A stretch of DNA of 64,000 bases from an uncultured Clostridia bacterium (GTDB taxonomy: Bacteria; Bacillota; Clostridia; Christensenellales; UBA1242): the NCBI GenBank assembly GCA_934746645.1, contig CAKVFE010000002.1:220880-284879 (forward strand). Direction: 5' to 3'. The notes under the pieces were generated by a model that was not told where the DNA came from, did no database searches, and was given only the letters and a program-made list of their open reading frames with translations. Shown piece by piece: positions 908 to 48,766 of the stretch; position 1 is the stretch's first letter, and the number at the start of each line of letters is the position of its first letter. Both the position numbers and the translations under genes were made by a program.

Positions 908-3490
908 ATGGCATTATCACCAATGATGCAACAATATGTCATCACAAAAGAAAAATATAAAGATGCAATCCTAATGTATAGATTGGGAGATTTTTACGAG
1001 ATGTTTTTTGAAGATGCAATAACAGCAAGTAAAGCTCTAGATCTTACACTTACAGGTAAACAATGTGGATTGGAAGAAAGAGCTCCAATGTGTGGTATAC
1101 CATATCACGCACTTGATAGTTATTTGCCAAAACTTATTGAGCAAGGATATAAGGTTGCTATATGCGAACAACTTACCGAGCCTAAGAAAGGTGTTAAACT
1201 TGTTGAGCGTGATGTAGTAAGAGTTATTACACCGGGAACATTGATTGATTCTAATTTGCTAGATGATAAGAAAAACAATTATATCTTGTCTGCTGTTTAT
1301 GCAAACAATCAAGTAGGCGTAACATATACAGATATATCTACAGGTGTATTGTATATGGCTGAGCAAACTCTTGACCAATTTAATGATTTGTTAGTTAGAG
1401 TTCGTCCAAGTGAGATTATATGTAATAGAGAACTAGCTGATATATCTGATACATTACTTGCTTCAAAACTTCAAGTTGTTCCTAATTTTCAAGTAAGAGC
1501 TTTTGAAGATTTTGATTATGATAACAATTATAAAGTTCTAACTAATCAAATAAATATGAAAGAACTTATAGGTATCACAGACAAACAAGAAGCAATAATA
1601 AGTGCTGGTATACTTATTAATTATTTGGTAGAAACTCAAAAAAGAAGTTTAACACACATTAATACAGTATCCTATATCTGTGATAACGAGTTTATGTCTT
1701 TAGATAGCAATACAAGACGCAATCTAGAACTAACAGAAACTATAAAAGATAGAAAGAAGCGTGGTTCATTATTATGGTTGCTTGATAAAACTCAAACAAG
1801 TATGGGTGGCAGAATGCTTAGAAGTTTTATAGAACAACCTTTATATGATGAAAAGTTAATCAACCAAAGGTTAAATGGTGTAGAAGAACTAGTAAAAAAT
1901 ATAATGGTAAGAGATTCACTTAATCAATTATTAAATTCTGTATATGATATAGAAAGATTATGTGGAAAGGTAAGTTACAATAATCTTACACCTAAAGACC
2001 TAGTTGCATTAAAAAATTCGCTAAGTGTATTACCACAAATTAAAGAAAAAATGTCTGTATTTAAAAGTACGATATTAAAAAATATAAGTAAGGATATATT
2101 TGATTATTCTGAAATATACAATATGCTAGATTCTGCTATTGTCGATAATCCTCCTTTTGTATTAAAAGATGGCGGATTTATTAAACCTGGATATAGTAAA
2201 GAATTAGATGATATCAATAATATATCAAAAGTTGGTAAAACTTGGCTTGCTACATTAGAAGCGGAAGAAAGAGAAAAAACCGGCATAAAGACCTTAAAAA
2301 TAGGGTATAACAGCGTATTTGGATACTACATTGAAGTATCTAAAGGTCAAGTTGGACAAGTACCTTATAGATATCAAAGAAAGCAAACTATAGCAAATGC
2401 AGAAAGATACATAACTGATGAACTTAAAGAAATGGAAAATAAAATTCTTCACGCTGAAGAACAAAAAATAAGTTTAGAGATAGAACTATTTAACAAAATC
2501 AGAGAAACATTGCTAGAAAATGTTGGTGCTATGCAAAAAACAGCTAGACAAATAGCAGTACTAGATGCGTTACTATCATTTGCTTCTGTAGCTTGCGAAA
2601 GAAATTATTGTAAACCACAAGTTTCTAGCGAATTAAATACAATAGAAATAGTTAATGGAAGACACCCAGTTGTTGAAGCATTACTTAAAAATGATGACTT
2701 TATACCAAATGACACATATTTAGACAATGCTGATTCTAGAACAATGATTATAACTGGACCTAATATGGCAGGTAAAAGTACATATATGCGTCAAGTCGCT
2801 ATCATTACACTTATGGCTCAAATCGGAAGTTTTGTACCTGCTACAAAGGCTAATATTGCTTTAACAGACAAAATATTTACAAGAGTTGGTGCAAGTGATG
2901 ACCTTGCATTTGGACAAAGTACATTTATGGTAGAAATGTCTGAAGTAAGTAATATATTAAAACAAGCAACTAACAATAGTTTGATAGTTTTAGATGAGGT
3001 TGGTAGAGGTACAAGTACATTTGATGGCTTAAGTATTGCTTGGAGTGTTATGGAGTACTTGAGTAAAACATTAAAAGCAAAAACCTTATTTGCCACTCAC
3101 TATCACGAATTAACCGAACTTGAAGGCGTACTAGAAGGTGTTAAAAATTATCGAATTAATGTTAAAGAATTTAATGATTCTATAATATTCTTAAGAAAAA
3201 TTGTTAGAGGTGGAGCAAATAAGAGTTTTGGTATAGAAGTTGCAAAACTTGCTGGACTACCAGACAATGTTATATCAAGAGCAAAAGAAATTTTGCATAC
3301 ATTGGAAGAAAATGAAATTAATAAAAACTCTTCACTTACGACAATAAATTCGACAGCTGAAAGCATTAAATATCAGAAAAATGCTATAGAAGTTGCCAAT
3401 ATATTAAAAGATGTCAATGTTGAAACATTAACTCCACTTAATGCTTTTGACCTAATTTTAACCTTAACAGAAAAAGTAAAAAAGGATTAG
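908..3490 (+). CDS. mutS: DNA mismatch repair protein MutS
   Basis: 860 aa. N-terminal SPMMQQY mismatch-binding start, Walker A GPNMAGKST, STFMVEM and DEVGRGTST motifs. RBS aaaggag upstream. Confidence 0.97.
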   Translation: MALSPMMQQYVITKEKYKDAILMYRLGDFYEMFFEDAITASKALDLTLTGKQCGLEERAPMCGIPYHALDSYLPKLIEQGYKVAICEQLTEPKKGVKLVERDVVRVITPGTLIDSNLLDDKKNNYILSAVYANNQVGVTYTDISTGVLYMAEQTLDQFNDLLVRVRPSEIICNRELADISDTLLASKLQVVPNFQVRAFEDFDYDNNYKVLTNQINMKELIGITDKQEAIISAGILINYLVETQKRSLTHINTVSYICDNEFMSLDSNTRRNLELTETIKDRKKRGSLLWLLDKTQTSMGGRMLRSFIEQPLYDEKLINQRLNGVEELVKNIMVRDSLNQLLNSVYDIERLCGKVSYNNLTPKDLVALKNSLSVLPQIKEKMSVFKSTILKNISKDIFDYSEIYNMLDSAIVDNPPFVLKDGGFIKPGYSKELDDINNISKVGKTWLATLEAEEREKTGIKTLKIGYNSVFGYYIEVSKGQVGQVPYRYQRKQTIANAERYITDELKEMENKILHAEEQKISLEIELFNKIRETLLENVGAMQKTARQIAVLDALLSFASVACERNYCKPQVSSELNTIEIVNGRHPVVEALLKNDDFIPNDTYLDNADSRTMIITGPNMAGKSTYMRQVAIITLMAQIGSFVPATKANIALTDKIFTRVGASDDLAFGQSTFMVEMSEVSNILKQATNNSLIVLDEVGRGTSTFDGLSIAWSVMEYLSKTLKAKTLFATHYHELTELEGVLEGVKNYRINVKEFNDSIIFLRKIVRGGANKSFGIEVAKLAGLPDNVISRAKEILHTLEENEINKNSSLTTINSTAESIKYQKNAIEVANILKDVNVETLTPLNAFDLILTLTEKVKKD

Positions 3491-3496
3491 AAAAAT

Positions 3497-5437
3497 ATGC
3501 CAAATATTAATATTCTTGATAAAACAATCTTTAATAGAATCGCTGCAGGTGAAGTAGTTGAAAAACCTGCTAGCGTTGTTAAAGAATTAGTAGAAAATAG
3601 TATTGATGCAAAATCTACCAATATTACTATTGAAGTAGAGGGTGGTGGCATCAAAAAAATAAGAGTAACTGATAATGGTTGTGGTATGGATATTGACAAT
3701 CTACCAAAAGCATTTTTACCACACGCTACAAGCAAAATATCTTGTTTAGATGATTTAGACAAGATAGGTACTTTAGGTTTTAGAGGTGAAGCACTTAGTA
3801 GTATAGCTTCAGTTGCTAATATAACAGCAGTAAGTAAAGTTAAAGAAAGAGAATCTGGTGCAAAAATTATTATTAACGGTGGTGAAGTTGAATCTGTAGC
3901 AGAAACAGGTTGTGTTGATGGTACTAGCATAACAATAGAAAATTTATTCTATAATGTTCCTGCTAGAGCAAAATTCCTTCGCAAACCAAAAACTGAAGAA
4001 AATGAAATAACAAATTTAGTTTCAAGATTAATTCTTGCTAATCCAAATATCTCTATTAAATATGTTGCTGATGGGAAGACAATTTATCATTCTACAGCAA
4101 CAGGTTTAAAAGATGCAATATATACTGTATATGGCGCTTCTGTAGTTGAAAATTTAGTTCCTATAGACTATACATATCAAAATATTATTAAAGTTGATGG
4201 ATATATAGGAATACCTTCATTTACTAAGCCTAATAGGACTTATCAAACTATTATTATTAATGGTAGATATGTCAACAATAAAACCATTTCTACAGCCATT
4301 TTTAACGCTTATGAGCCATATATTATGAAAAGTTGTTTCCCATTCTTTGTTGTAAGTATGACTATACCTTTGGATAAAGTAGATGTAAATGTTCATCCAA
4401 ATAAACTTGATGTAAAATTTGAAAATAATAATTTAATATTTGGTGCATTCTATACTCCAATAAATGAAGTTTTATTAAATTTAAGTTCAAAAATAAGAAA
4501 ATATGAATCTGAAGAAAAAGAAGAACCAGCCACAAGTTCTCAGACTGTAAACTTTAACAATTTACATACTTTAGACAATAATATAGGTTCTCAATTTAAT
4601 AATAATGAATCTCAAGAAAAAGTAGACACAGTAAAATATGCTACTATTGAAGATGATGAACCATCACCACAATTAATTGATAATAGTTTTAAATCTGAAA
4701 CCGAACAAAATATTGCTCAATCTATTAATTCATTTTTAAGTAATAAAGAATTTGAGTTTGAAGTTAACACTAACGAAATTTCACAAAATATGATTAATAG
4801 AGCAACACAAGAACATATATTCAAACAATCTGATATGTTTGATGATAGAAAAGTAGATTTAGCTTCATTAAAAATTGTTGGTACTTGCTTTAATACATAT
4901 ATTATTGTTGAAAATAATGATAGTATATTCTTTATTGACCAGCACGCAGGACACGAAAGATTGTTGTATGACAAATTTAAAGCATCATTTGAAAAAGATG
5001 ATTTGGTAGTACAATCACTATTAGTACCTTATGTTTTAAATACAAATTATCTAGAAAGCAACTTTATTAATAACAACATAGATGTATTTAAATCTTTAGG
5101 ATTTGATATCGAACCTTTTGGTATAAATAGTTTTAAAGTATCTTCTGTTCCAGTTTTGTTAAAAGACATTTCTTTATATCAATTCTTTAATGAAGTATTG
5201 CAAGATGTAAATAAGAACTTAAACTTAACTAAATCTGACATATTAAAGGAATACTTAGAGCGTTCTGCTTGCAGAAGTGCAGTAAAAGCAAACGACATAT
5301 TATCTAAACAAGAAATAGAAATTTTGCTTAATATGTTAAATCAAAACAACCAAATTTTGCAATGCCCACATGGTAGACCAGTTATTATCGAAATAACAGA
5401 TAAAGAAATTGAAAAATGGTTTAAAAGGATTGTTTAA
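3497..5437 (+). CDS. mutL: DNA mismatch repair protein MutL
   Basis: GHKL ATPase N-terminus (AAGEVVEKPASVVKELVENSIDA, DNGCGM), C-terminal DQHAGHERL endonuclease/dimerisation motif. Follows mutS. Confidence 0.97.
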   Translation: MPNINILDKTIFNRIAAGEVVEKPASVVKELVENSIDAKSTNITIEVEGGGIKKIRVTDNGCGMDIDNLPKAFLPHATSKISCLDDLDKIGTLGFRGEALSSIASVANITAVSKVKERESGAKIIINGGEVESVAETGCVDGTSITIENLFYNVPARAKFLRKPKTEENEITNLVSRLILANPNISIKYVADGKTIYHSTATGLKDAIYTVYGASVVENLVPIDYTYQNIIKVDGYIGIPSFTKPNRTYQTIIINGRYVNNKTISTAIFNAYEPYIMKSCFPFFVVSMTIPLDKVDVNVHPNKLDVKFENNNLIFGAFYTPINEVLLNLSSKIRKYESEEKEEPATSSQTVNFNNLHTLDNNIGSQFNNNESQEKVDTVKYATIEDDEPSPQLIDNSFKSETEQNIAQSINSFLSNKEFEFEVNTNEISQNMINRATQEHIFKQSDMFDDRKVDLASLKIVGTCFNTYIIVENNDSIFFIDQHAGHERLLYDKFKASFEKDDLVVQSLLVPYVLNTNYLESNFINNNIDVFKSLGFDIEPFGINSFKVSSVPVLLKDISLYQFFNEVLQDVNKNLNLTKSDILKEYLERSACRSAVKANDILSKQEIEILLNMLNQNNQILQCPHGRPVIIEITDKEIEKWFKRIV

Positions 5438-45928: not shown

Positions 45929-46555
45929 CTATACGACTATAATTATCACTTTAACCAATGGTAAAAGTAAACATTTTAACAGAATAATCACTACCCCAAT
46001 TATAACTAATGCCCAATACACTTTTTTATAATTAAAATTGCTACAGCAACTATTACAGCCATACTTTTTTATAATGTTATTCCGTTTAATAGCAATAGCT
46101 GATAAAAAGATAAGTATAAGACATACCATAAGGTCAAATGGCAGTATAAAGATAAAGACATTAAGCACACCAGATATGCCATATTGAACAATAAATATAG
46201 TAATATCAAAGCCAATAAGATATCCTTTTATAATCAAAATAAGAAAAGTAAAAATCTTACAAAATGGCTTAAAATTGACAAAAATTATAATCCCTGAAAA
46301 GAAAAGGAATCCAAACATACACGGAAAAAACAATCCCATAGTACCTCTATCCCCTTTCAGAAATTCGACAAAATTGCTATCAGAAAGATTGGAAAGTGTA
46401 AGGTCGCCAGAATACTTGATAGATTTAAATATCCCTAAACTTAAACCAAACACTAAAAAAACAAAACACAACAAAAGAAGTGCTTTGTATGTGCTCCAAA
46501 ATTGAGCAAAGCTATTTTTATATTTATATTGATTTTTATAACTATTAGACTTCAC
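45929..46555 (-). CDS. spoIIM: Stage II sporulation protein M (SpoIIM-like)
   Basis: About 208 aa with 5 TM helices. The IIKGYLIGF motif parallels B. subtilis FLKGVVVGF. Topology and size fit SpoIIM, and it is adjacent to spo0A/spoIVB. Confidence 0.6.
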   Translation of the reverse strand: MKSNSYKNQYKYKNSFAQFWSTYKALLLLCFVFLVFGLSLGIFKSIKYSGDLTLSNLSDSNFVEFLKGDRGTMGLFFPCMFGFLFFSGIIIFVNFKPFCKIFTFLILIIKGYLIGFDITIFIVQYGISGVLNVFIFILPFDLMVCLILIFLSAIAIKRNNIIKKYGCNSCCSNFNYKKVYWALVIIGVVIILLKCLLLPLVKVIIIVV

Positions 46556-46576: not shown

Positions 46577-47332
46577 CTAAAATTTAATACTCCTATCAAG
46601 TTGAGAATAGCTAATAATAACTTGGTCAAGTAAATATGCTAAAAATGCCCTATTGCTTACAGTACTACCAGCAAAGATAGTATTGAGTACACCATCTTGA
46701 CAATGTTTTTGTGCTAAAGTTATCGAATTGCGAATATTCCTTTCTATATTGATAGGATTGGTATTATTACGCAAAGCAACTTTTGGGTATACTTCTGTAC
46801 TCAAAGGCCCTAGTACACCATTATTGATAAGTGCTTCTTCAATACATTGTTTGATATAGTTAAATCCCATATGCTTAGGCAAAAATCCCATACGAATAAG
46901 GTATTCGGTTAAAAATTGACTAACAATCCTATAATCAAATCTAAAGGTGTTGTTCTTTTCAATATTAAACAAAATCCTTTCTCTAAGTGGTGCCATACTC
47001 TTATAGAACTCATTGTAAGACATACAAAATCTACTTACACCATCAATATTGATTTGTTGTGTGTCATTAACACCAAGATAAACAATATTGTCCGGTATAC
47101 CAAATTTAGCATCTTTTTGGACATTAACAAATTCGTCAGTTATATCAATAGACTCTCCGTCTACTATAAGCAAATTAACTTGTTGTTGGTTGACTGTATA
47201 GATAAGGTCAGAAAAGAACTTAACTATACTTAAATTAAACTTTTTAGAATTATGGAAAATTTCATTCATCTCCATCATTCGTTTTAAATTATCTCTACAA
47301 TAAAATACTGTATACAGATTCTCCGTTGCCAT
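46577..47332 (-). CDS. spo0A: Spo0A orthologue with a divergent, apparently degenerate receiver domain
   Basis: The C-terminal half matches the Spo0A_C DNA-binding domain (MGFLPKHMGFNYIKQCI..., EVYPKVA, NIERNIRNSI). Canonical position immediately downstream of spoIVB. The N-terminal REC-like half retains LLIVD but lacks several conserved REC residues by hand alignment. Confidence 0.75.
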   Translation of the reverse strand: MATENLYTVFYCRDNLKRMMEMNEIFHNSKKFNLSIVKFFSDLIYTVNQQQVNLLIVDGESIDITDEFVNVQKDAKFGIPDNIVYLGVNDTQQINIDGVSRFCMSYNEFYKSMAPLRERILFNIEKNNTFRFDYRIVSQFLTEYLIRMGFLPKHMGFNYIKQCIEEALINNGVLGPLSTEVYPKVALRNNTNPINIERNIRNSITLAQKHCQDGVLNTIFAGSTVSNRAFLAYLLDQVIISYSQLDRSIKF

Positions 47333-47369: not shown

Positions 47370-47378
47370 AGTATAGCA
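47370..47378 (-). promoter_or_regulatory. Candidate extended -10 promoter of spo0A
   Basis: Minus strand TGcTATACT about 40 nt upstream of the ATG. The -35 is weak (TAGATT). Confidence 0.35.
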
Positions 47379-47455
47379 AAGATAATCTAAAAAATCTACA
47401 AAAATAAGTATATTTTTACAAAAATATTTTTAAATAAAAAAATTGTAAAAAACTT

Positions 47456-47472
47456 TGTCGAATTGTGTCGAA
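47456..47472. promoter_or_regulatory. Two tandem consensus Spo0A boxes (TGTCGAA) 10 bp apart upstream of spo0A
   Basis: TGTCGAA at 47456-47462 and at 47466-47472, in tTGTCGAAttgTGTCGAAa. They lie 125-140 bp upstream of the spo0A start. Confidence 0.7.
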
Positions 47473-47563
47473 ATATGGGTTATATTTTGCCTAAAAATAG
47501 GCATTATTTTGTACAAATATATTTTTTACAAAAAATATAACCACATTTAAACAATTCAATAAT

Positions 47564-48766
47564 TTATTCGTTGAGCATAAAGTCAAGATATAGTCCAAAA
47601 CCTTTTGTAGAATCGTTGACAAAAACATGTGTTACAGCCCCAATAAGATGTCCGTCTTGTATTATTGGACTACCACTCATTCCTTGTACAATTCCACCTG
47701 TTTTTTCTATAAGTTTTTGGTCTGTAATTTTGATAACCATATTTTTACTTTTACTACCAGTTTGATAGTTAGTTTTGATAAGTTCGATACTATATTCTTC
47801 TATTGTTTCGCCGTCTACACAACACAAAATACTAGCTTTGCCTGGGTGTGCTGTGAGTTTACCACCAATTTTTATATTGGTCTTCCCTAAAGTAAGTTGA
47901 CTATTTTCATTAAAATTGCCAAAGACACCATAGTTACAGTTTTTGTCTACTGTTCCCTGTTCGTCCCTACCTTTCATAAAAAAGCCAAGTATTTCGCCCG
48001 GAACTCCACGCTTTCCTTTTTTTATCCCTACTACATTGCATTTGTATACTTCACCATTGTTGACTTCAAAAATTTCGTTGGTATCAGCGTCTGTTATTGC
48101 GTGTCCTAAAGAACCAAATCTCAATGTTTCTGGTTGGATATATGTAAGAGTTCCTACACCCATAGCGTCATCTCTTATCCATATCCCAAGTTTGTAAGAT
48201 TGGGTTTGGATATCCAATTCTGGCTGGATATGTGTCGAAAATTGTTTACCATCTCTTTTTGCCAACACTTCAATAGGTTGACCTTCACACTCATCTAGCA
48301 CTTTTTGTATATCTTCCAAACAATTAACATCAGTATTGTTTAGTTTAAGTATAACATCTCCATTATTAAGTCCAGATTCGGCAATCGGACTTATATTTCC
48401 GTTTTTAGTAATTATGTAGTTGCTACCAACAATAATTACTCCTTTGCTTTTTAGGTTTAGACCAATACAATCGCCACCTAGCATTACTTCATCAGTCTTA
48501 ACCACATTTACTTTTAAGTTTTTTATATTAAACAAATTAAATAATTTAAATTTGACAACATATTCGTTGAGTTCTTCGTCAGTACCTGCAAATACTGATT
48601 TTGCCCTAACCAAGCCAGTTTTGCTTATTAAGTTGTTGTATTCTTCTTCTGTAAGAATGTCATTGTTGTTGATAAGCATAAGTTCGTTGTAAGGGACAAT
48701 ACTACACACCAAAACAAACATAATTGACAACATAGCAAAAAGTAAGTATTTACATTTTTGTTTCAT
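47564..48766 (-). CDS. spoIVB: SpoIVB peptidase (S55 signalling serine protease)
   Basis: N-terminal TM, PDZ domain, S55 domain with GVGTLTY and catalytic-Ser context VQGMSGSPI. Confidence 0.93.
   Translation of the reverse strand: MKQKCKYLLFAMLSIMFVLVCSIVPYNELMLINNNDILTEEEYNNLISKTGLVRAKSVFAGTDEELNEYVVKFKLFNLFNIKNLKVNVVKTDEVMLGGDCIGLNLKSKGVIIVGSNYIITKNGNISPIAESGLNNGDVILKLNNTDVNCLEDIQKVLDECEGQPIEVLAKRDGKQFSTHIQPELDIQTQSYKLGIWIRDDAMGVGTLTYIQPETLRFGSLGHAITDADTNEIFEVNNGEVYKCNVVGIKKGKRGVPGEILGFFMKGRDEQGTVDKNCNYGVFGNFNENSQLTLGKTNIKIGGKLTAHPGKASILCCVDGETIEEYSIELIKTNYQTGSKSKNMVIKITDQKLIEKTGGIVQGMSGSPIIQDGHLIGAVTHVFVNDSTKGFGLYLDFMLNE

Follow-up and report, generated by a model that had tools for sequence, protein, structure and literature searches.

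A spo0A paralogue with a predicted pseudo-receiver domain downstream of spoIVB in an uncultured, reduced-genome gut Clostridia bacterium

Gene organization of the spoIVB locus

The DNA analysed in this study (hereafter, the window) is a stretch of 64,000 nucleotides from the genome of an uncultured Clostridia bacterium (G000), corresponding to positions 220880–284879 of contig C2. The genome assembly comprises 1.32 Mb in 5 contigs, is 97% complete, and has a G+C content of 30%. The gene of interest (X) is the last in the order nusB-xseA-proS-argR-recN-spoIVB-X, and it and its immediate neighbours are as follows.

47564–48766, minus strand: spoIVB, the upstream neighbour (Peptidase_S55, 270 bits; synteny in relatives)
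46577–47332, minus strand: spo0A paralogue gene, an ORF of 251 amino acids plus stop, encoding a pseudo-receiver N-domain and a divergent Spo0A_C domain
45929–46555, minus strand: gene for a divergent SpoIIM-like membrane protein of 208 amino acids, 21 bp downstream; co-transcription is probable

The initial annotation of this DNA had placed the gene in the canonical spo0A position next to spoIVB, and this holds: the gene is directly downstream of spoIVB, as are its counterparts in relatives. The usual arrangement in the paralogue family is recN-spoIVB-X-spoIIM-like, and the SpoIIM-like gene keeps its place behind the paralogue in most relatives. The product of the latter gene matches TIGR02831 under the cut-off (24.9 bits, E = 1.5e-5, model positions 10–185 of 200). 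The annotation had also described the other sporulation machinery in the window as intact, and SigF, SpoIIAB, SpoVAC, SpoVAD, SpoVAE, SpoIIIAA, SpoIIIAE, and SpoIIIAG were all confirmed.

Sequence and structural matches of the gene product

The sole Pfam match of the window protein is Spo0A_C (PF08769), with 55.4 bits over residues 142–236 and thus above the cut-off of 25 bits, whereas Response_reg (PF00072) was absent even at E ≤ 10. On the NCBIfam Spo0A equivalog model TIGR02875, which has a full-length cut-off of 200 bits, the protein scores 36.1 bits, below the cut-off and through its C-terminal part only. Among solved structures, sequence relatives were confined to 1lq1 and 1fc3, both of Spo0A DNA-binding domains. 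The Pfam score and these two structures bear out the earlier assignment of the C-terminal half as a Spo0A_C effector domain.

A search of 5.8 billion proteins yielded 15 clusters, 14 of which cover 97–100% of the protein length at 43–97% identity. All 15 clusters are annotated as Spo0A_C, and one of them additionally has PF00294. The family alignment contains 52 invariant columns, the helix-turn-helix (HTH) core included. The AlphaFold2 (AF2) model, built from an alignment of 15 sequences, has a mean pLDDT of 81, and FixJ, VpsT, NarL, and DesR were obtained as whole-length Foldseek matches of this model.

A canonical spo0A gene on another contig

Two genes were detected in the genome by a Spo0A_C search, namely the window gene (57 bits) and a gene on contig C3 (142.5 bits). 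The latter, located at C3:37183–37974 (positions 1039–1830 of locus L001), encodes a product of 263 amino acids, which is also the sole Response_reg match in the genome (83.7 bits). Its receiver (REC) signature consists of VLVDNN, IITDIVLP, LVLSALS, and MIKP, with D17, D62, Ser, and Lys in place and Asn at the second acidic position. The window protein shares 25% identity with this protein, confined to the C-terminal 114 residues. Both genes are present in 9/9 genomes of the same genus. It is unlikely that the C3 gene represents contamination of the assembly, because the G+C content of C3 equals that of the other contigs and the same two-gene pattern is seen in all relatives.

Because the better Spo0A, which is also the only REC protein of the genome, is encoded on C3, the window gene is a paralogue and not the Spo0A orthologue (or master regulator of sporulation) that it had been taken for. 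The proposal that the master regulator of this organism has escaped control by a phosphorelay or by kinases is correct in the part that concerns the receiver of the window protein, which is most likely degenerate (see below); with a canonical Spo0A in the same genome, whose residues are intact, such an escape of the master regulator does not follow.

The C3 spo0A gene is not located beside spoIVB. It is followed by a gene for a zinc-ribbon protein whose tail is polyacidic and then by veg, and a perfect 0A box is found about 135 bp upstream of the gene (L001:900–906).

The N-terminal domain

46949–47332, minus strand: N-terminal pseudo-receiver domain, residues 1–128, with a predicted REC-like beta-alpha fold lacking helix α4; D58 is kept
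47159–47161, minus strand: codon of D58 (gtc on the plus strand, i.e. GAC), at the phospho-acceptor position and invariant in the family

In the AF2 model, in which the pLDDT of this domain is about 57–88, residues 1–128 are predicted to form β1 (6–11), α1, β2 (32–37), α2, β3 (54–58), α3, β4 (82–86), β5 (101–104), and α5 (106–128). Helix α4, part of the usual α4-β5-α5 dimer face, is absent from the prediction. The best fold matches of the domain by Foldseek are the receivers of MtrA, PhoP, CheY3, PmrA, and KdpE (target TM-scores of 0.63–0.68; E of about 5e-3), and KaiA and VpsT are also among the fold matches.

Sequence profiles (Pfam, hhalign, and an N-domain HMM) gave no significant support for a REC ancestry of the domain. 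The N-domain HMM, searched against 1.84 billion representatives, retrieved 10 proteins only, all of the same family, and reached no canonical REC; every full-length protein among the 10 is fused to Spo0A_C. The proposed receiver ancestry of the N-domain rests on the predicted fold, the domain architecture, and the paralogy, and not on sequence statistics.

The four motifs on which the initial annotation had based its reading of the receiver are all found in the translation (VFYCRDN at residues 9–15, NLLIVDGES at 53–61, VYLGVND at 84–90, and FCMSYNE at 102–108). In its alignment by hand, the phospho-acceptor Asp seemed to be kept and the acidic pair, the Thr/Ser, and the Lys to be lost. Two independent routes, i.e. 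the AF2 model and a global hhalign alignment of the N-domain family with canonical Spo0A receivers (E = 0.15, not statistically significant), give one and the same register, and the manual alignment was therefore right. In the model, D58 ends β3 at the phospho-acceptor position, C12 and R13 follow β1 at the site of the acidic pair, G87 follows β4 at the Thr/Ser site, and S105 follows β5 at the Lys site.

The same losses are found family-wide. S/C/T-K/R stands in place of the acidic pair, with G/N/D as the next residue; the Thr/Ser site is occupied by G/N/E/D and the Lys site by S/T/D, and D58 is invariant. In the hhalign register, D14 of the window species falls on the second acidic position, at which the family consensus is Gly (S-K-G-N). 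The phosphorylation quintet of the window protein is thus incomplete, consisting of D58 and, in this species, D14 at the second acidic site. Because the Mg2+-binding acidic pair, the Thr/Ser, and the Lys have been lost, the domain is probably a pseudo-receiver in which phosphotransfer is not to be expected. The N-terminal half is most likely a degenerate receiver, which makes regulation of the protein by phosphotransfer improbable. Given that D58 is invariant, some unconventional modification of this residue is possible.

The DNA-binding domain

46580–46933, minus strand: Spo0A_C-type DNA-binding domain (DBD), residues 134–251 (PF08769 match; helical in the AF2 model)
46703–46756, minus strand: predicted recognition helix, residues 193–210, PINIERNIRNSITLAQKH (from the alignment to 1lq1)

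The C-domain was matched by Foldseek to 1lq1_D with a target TM-score of 0.86 and an rmsd of 2.2 Å. Four residues of the predicted recognition helix (E197, R198, I200, and R201), which correspond to ERAIR of Spo0A in the alignment, are invariant and are kept even in the most divergent members of the family.

Helices αB to αF of the canonical Spo0A DBD are 100% identical across six genomes of the genus. In the same six genomes, the identity of the paralogue is 79% in αB, 74% in αC, 66% in αD, and 81% in αF, but only 23% in the αE region. Helix αE is the sigma-A-activating region of Spo0A, and the paralogue probably no longer makes a sigma-A contact in the manner of Spo0A. The C-domain is a divergent but constrained HTH of the Spo0A type, in which the stretch matching the sigma-A-activating helix is unconstrained.

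Selection, distribution, and origin of the paralogue

The dN/dS ratio, computed against one close strain with a 97% identical protein, is 0.10 for the whole paralogue, 0.13 for the N-domain, and 0 for the C-domain (0 non-synonymous vs 5 synonymous changes). The adjacent spoIVB gene gives 0.044 in the same strain comparison. Both domains of the paralogue are under purifying selection. Within the genus, the identity of the paralogue is 36–51%, compared with 77–88% for the canonical copy.

The paralogue ORF is full-length and intact in 8/10 genomes of the genus, and such ORFs also exist in several further genera. G007 and G008, which are sister species, show a clean deletion of the N-domain, yet the promoter, the RBS, and a DBD-only ORF are retained directly after spoIVB. 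These ORFs encode 120 amino acids in G007 (L012:1579–1941) and 142 amino acids in G008 (L011:1486–1914).

The sample of the window's family comprised 24 relatives (G001–G024) with genomes of 0.8–1.3 Mb. Among them, only the copy that is not adjacent to spoIVB (copy B) keeps a receiver. The pseudo-receiver form is present after spoIVB in the window's genus, in G012, G015, and G017, and probably in G020. In G016, a canonical spo0A gene is followed in tandem by the pseudo-receiver paralogue (C36:2499–4226; loci L014 and L062), and unrelated genes follow spoIVB. In G018, G019, and G021, the paralogue was not found and none is located after spoIVB. At least four genera of the family (those of G016, G018, G019, and G021) accordingly lack the paralogue beside spoIVB, which indicates that it is dispensable.

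Beyond the window's family, at least six families of the order have a spoIVB-adjacent copy (copy A) with an intact receiver and the signature D/E-D-D-S/T-K, together with a second copy, B, located elsewhere. The Pfam REC scores of copy A are 52–82 bits in the four copies scored. The A copies in these families are found at loci L044, L049, L050, L053, L057, and L058, and the B copies at loci L045, L048, L051, L052, L056, and L059. Because two intact spo0A copies per genome are common in the order, the duplication seems, from these sequences, to be old.

In the maximum-likelihood tree, the pseudo-receiver clade is nested in the B clade with a support of 100/100 and has a very long stem. Union of this clade with the spoIVB-adjacent A copies was not rejected by the AU test (p = 0.143). 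Spo0A of Bacillus subtilis served as the outgroup and as a register guide, for rooting and orientation only. The evidence for the origin of the paralogue is split: synteny favours A, whereas the tandem arrangement in G016 and a B-like intermediate (L042) favour B. We lean towards in-situ decay of A on account of the identical synteny.

The intermediate L042 (G013:C7, ORF 3451–4197, minus strand) is a degenerate second Spo0A with Glu at the phospho-acceptor position and a B-like DNA-binding domain. Another degenerate second Spo0A is encoded at L061 (G040:C42, ORF 3961–4671, minus strand), in another small genome, which lacks HisKA matches and encodes only one receiver protein.

The upstream region

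47370–47378, minus strand: extended -10, reading TGCTATACT on this strand, of a likely sigma-A-type promoter for the paralogue
47456–47472, plus strand: two perfect 0A boxes (TGTCGAA), 10 bp apart, 124–140 bp before the start codon
47508–47517, no strand: palindrome TTTGTACAAA, within a TTTGTA[A/C]AAA element; more copies at 47413–47422 and 47523–47532

An extended -10 (TGnTATACT, TGnTATAAT, or TGnTACAAT) is present at a constant distance to the start codon in 10/11 related upstream regions; the one region of the 11 in which it is not evident is that of the tandem copy of G016 (L014). The consensus promoter scan did not call the sequence at 47370–47378. The promoter scan yielded a further candidate (TCGACA-18-TACAAT), the -35-like hexamer of which is overlapped by the tandem 0A boxes. 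A tandem pair of perfect 0A boxes is unique in the 1.32-Mb genome, and the corresponding pair in the close strain is TGCCGAA and TGTCGAA. The pair is absent before the orthologues in other species, i.e. it is species-specific, and a conserved Spo0A autoregulatory site was ruled out on this basis. Two further observations concern 0A boxes in general. The window contains 9 perfect TGTCGAA boxes against 3.2 expected (0/100 shuffles reach 9), and TTGTCGAA is enriched in intergenic DNA genome-wide (12/39 vs about 12% expected).

The TTTGTA[A/C]AAA element occurs in one to three copies upstream of 14/14 paralogue genes examined, in many cases as the palindrome TTTGTACAAA. The related loci compared span 180 kb, and all of their TTGTACAA octamers (10/10) lie in the 2.8 kb of DNA upstream of the paralogue genes. 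A relaxed motif has 25 occurrences in those 2.8 kb, whereas the genome background is 0.0065 per 200 bp; since the compared genomes are kin, these counts represent a phylogenetic footprint and are not statistically independent. Only its two central bases distinguish the element from the extended 0A box TTTGTCGAAA, and this similarity suggests that it may be a variant 0A box recognized by Spo0A or by the paralogue. In the whole genome, TTGTACAA is not enriched in intergenic DNA (10/94), and a regulon therefore cannot be defined from the palindrome. The sole other intergenic region with two copies of TTTGTACAAA, 41 bp apart (111547 and 111588), is C3:111547–111597. This region, a possible second target of the binder of the element, precedes a small CxxC zinc-ribbon ORF (C3:111611–111925).

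Histidine kinases

Searches of the genome for histidine kinases with HisKA, HisKA_2, HisKA_3, His_kinase, and HATPase_c_5 were all negative. The four HATPase_c matches in the genome are GyrB, a second GyrB-type topoisomerase subunit (ParE-like), MutL, and SpoIIAB. Among the 24 family relatives, HisKA is absent in 19 and a single receiver is present in 19; in the few family genomes with a HisKA match, the match adjoins one extra regulator. Most genomes from other families of the order contain 2–29 HisKA and 4–77 receiver matches, the exception being G040 (f17), which has none and one, respectively.

The initial annotation had doubted that conventional kinases control the sporulation regulator of this organism. 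The doubt itself is supported by the lack of a detected histidine kinase in the genome, but the reason originally given for it, the degenerate receiver, concerns the paralogue. An acetate kinase is present in the genome and makes acetyl phosphate a conceivable donor for the canonical Spo0A, which acetyl phosphate might then charge.

Comparison with known systems

The window protein resembles Spo0A (TIGR02875; B. subtilis and Clostridioides difficile; 1LQ1) in its two-domain layout, length, Spo0A_C fold, and spoIVB-adjacent position, as well as in the E-R-x-I-R core of the recognition helix and an S/T-N-x-x-F motif in the last helix. It differs from Spo0A in that it is without the REC sequence signature, having lost the acidic pair, the Thr/Ser, and the Lys, and in that its sigma-A-activating region is not conserved. 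In addition, a canonical Spo0A is encoded in the same genome, and some relatives do without the paralogue. The window protein is an accessory Spo0A paralogue, most likely phosphorylation-dead, beside a normal Spo0A.

Atypical regulators with degenerate receivers include HP1043, ChxR, WhiI/BldM, and FrzS, and pseudo-receivers are also present in KaiA and plant PRRs. As in these proteins, the receiver fold (here predicted) is kept, the phosphorylation quintet is incomplete, and the output domain is retained. To our knowledge, none of them has a Spo0A_C output domain. The window protein further differs in that the Asp itself is kept and the residues surrounding it are lost, and in that a function is proposed for it from its sequence.

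Paralogous spo0A genes have been described in clostridia: 10 of 118 clostridial genomes carry two copies and Anaerostipes hadrus carries three (Galperin et al. 2022, bioRxiv 10.1101/2022.02.25.481979), and Cthe_0812 and Cthe_3087 are paralogous spo0A genes of C. thermocellum (PMC3804516). The situation reported here is similar in that a second Spo0A-like gene exists beside the main one, with the two-copy state extending across the window's whole order. However, the published reports mention no loss of phosphorylation residues, whereas the window copy has a pseudo-receiver, and no description of a pseudo-receiver form was found in the literature on paralogous spo0A. A corresponding difference is seen within the order, where the other families keep an intact REC in both copies, whereas one copy has become a pseudo-receiver in the window's family.

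Two reports are relevant to the DBD-only orthologues of G007 and G008. The isolated Spo0A DBD binds its targets without phosphorylation (PMC3485338), and these natural DBD-only proteins fit such constitutive DNA binding. Gut phages carry truncated spo0A homologues consisting of the effector domain only (PMC10294663); the two orthologues, with 120–142 amino acids, are alike in architecture, and receiver-independent action on the Spo0A network is an idea that may apply to both. In contrast to the phage genes, the window gene is chromosomal, is located in conserved synteny, and encodes an N-domain of 128 residues, and no phage context was seen.

Interpretation of the paralogue

We consider it likely that the window gene is a lineage-specific Spo0A paralogue whose product, carrying a pseudo-receiver, is a phosphorylation-independent DNA-binding regulator, with the C3 Spo0A as the phosphorylatable switch. 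Of this explanation, the analysis establishes that the gene is a paralogue, which residues have been lost, what fold is predicted, and that synteny, purifying selection, and a conserved upstream element exist, whereas DNA binding, target sites, regulatory sign, and independence from phosphorylation are inferred. The constrained DBD, the invariant ERxIR residues, and the N-domain deletions point to a DNA-binding protein without dependence on phosphotransfer, and the lack of a detected histidine kinase in the genome is indirectly in line with such independence. The paralogue would be made from the sigma-A-type promoter and would bind 0A-box-like sites without phosphorylation, including the TTTGTA[A/C]AAA element at its own promoter. 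It may thereby modulate part of the Spo0A regulon, competing or repressing being likelier than activating, and the canonical Spo0A would stay the phosphorylatable switch.

The paralogue might instead act mainly through protein contacts, the pseudo-receiver pairing with the canonical receiver or titrating a partner of Spo0A and so tuning Spo0A without kinases. There is a precedent in Streptomyces, in which the atypical regulator WhiI pairs with BldM. Such a role would be consistent with the purifying selection on the N-domain (dN/dS of 0.13), with the invariant surface-candidate residues of this domain (Y11, N15, D58, D81, and N82), and with a lineage in which there is one REC protein and histidine kinases are undetectable. 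Two species, however, do without the N-domain, and helix α4 of the α4-β5-α5 dimer face is not predicted; we regard protein contacts as an unlikely main mode of action.

A still less probable explanation is that the paralogue is a decaying, functionless duplicate, a relic heading for loss in a shrinking genome. Its fast evolution relative to the canonical copy, the N-domain deletions in G007 and G008, the unconstrained αE region, and its absence from G018, G019, and G021 and from beside spoIVB in G016 would all be expected of a relic. This is countered by the intact full-length ORF in most genomes of the genus and in several other genera, by the overall dN/dS of 0.10 with a C-domain free of non-synonymous change, by the 52 invariant columns including the HTH core, and by the conservation of the promoter and the upstream element even where the N-domain has been deleted.

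That the window gene is the Spo0A orthologue and master regulator, with a phosphorylation-independent receiver, is very improbable and, as originally stated, is refuted by the C3 Spo0A: the spoIVB-adjacent position, the fact that other families of the order have a genuine Spo0A, its REC intact, at this position, and the AU test, which does not reject descent from an A copy, are outweighed by the far better scores of the C3 protein (84 bits for REC and 142 for Spo0A_C) and the complete conservation of its DBD helices in the genus, by the 36 bits of the window protein on an equivalog model that requires 200, and by loss or shortening of the paralogue in several relatives in which both spoIVB and the canonical gene are kept.

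Returning to the preferred explanation, i.e. a DNA-binding paralogue beside a phosphorylatable Spo0A, a broader joint reading may be put forward, to which we attach low confidence. The decision to sporulate could be kinase-free, made by an orphan phosphorylatable Spo0A, perhaps charged by acetyl phosphate, together with a phosphorylation-independent factor that binds variant 0A boxes or pairs with Spo0A. As a part of this reading, and equally tentative, almost all two-component signalling might have been lost in this family of gut Clostridia with genomes of 0.8–1.3 Mb.

Entry into endospore formation is universally switched by Spo0A, whose control by phosphorylation is a textbook case. The second Spo0A-type protein, encoded at the locus described here, has apparently given up the chemistry of phosphorylation and yet is kept under selection. 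For annotation, this means that adjacency to spoIVB together with a Spo0A_C match does not identify the master regulator. The lineage consists of uncultured gut Clostridia with reduced genomes, in which the sporulation genes checked (those for SigF, SpoIIAB, SpoIIIA, SpoIVB, SpoVA, and Spo0A) are retained and, despite this, no recognisable histidine kinase is present. These findings raise the question of the role of a receiver-dead Spo0A at 0A-like boxes and, because no histidine kinase is detectable in the genome, that of the activation of the canonical Spo0A without kinases. The paralogue is of more interest together with this kinase-less background than alone.
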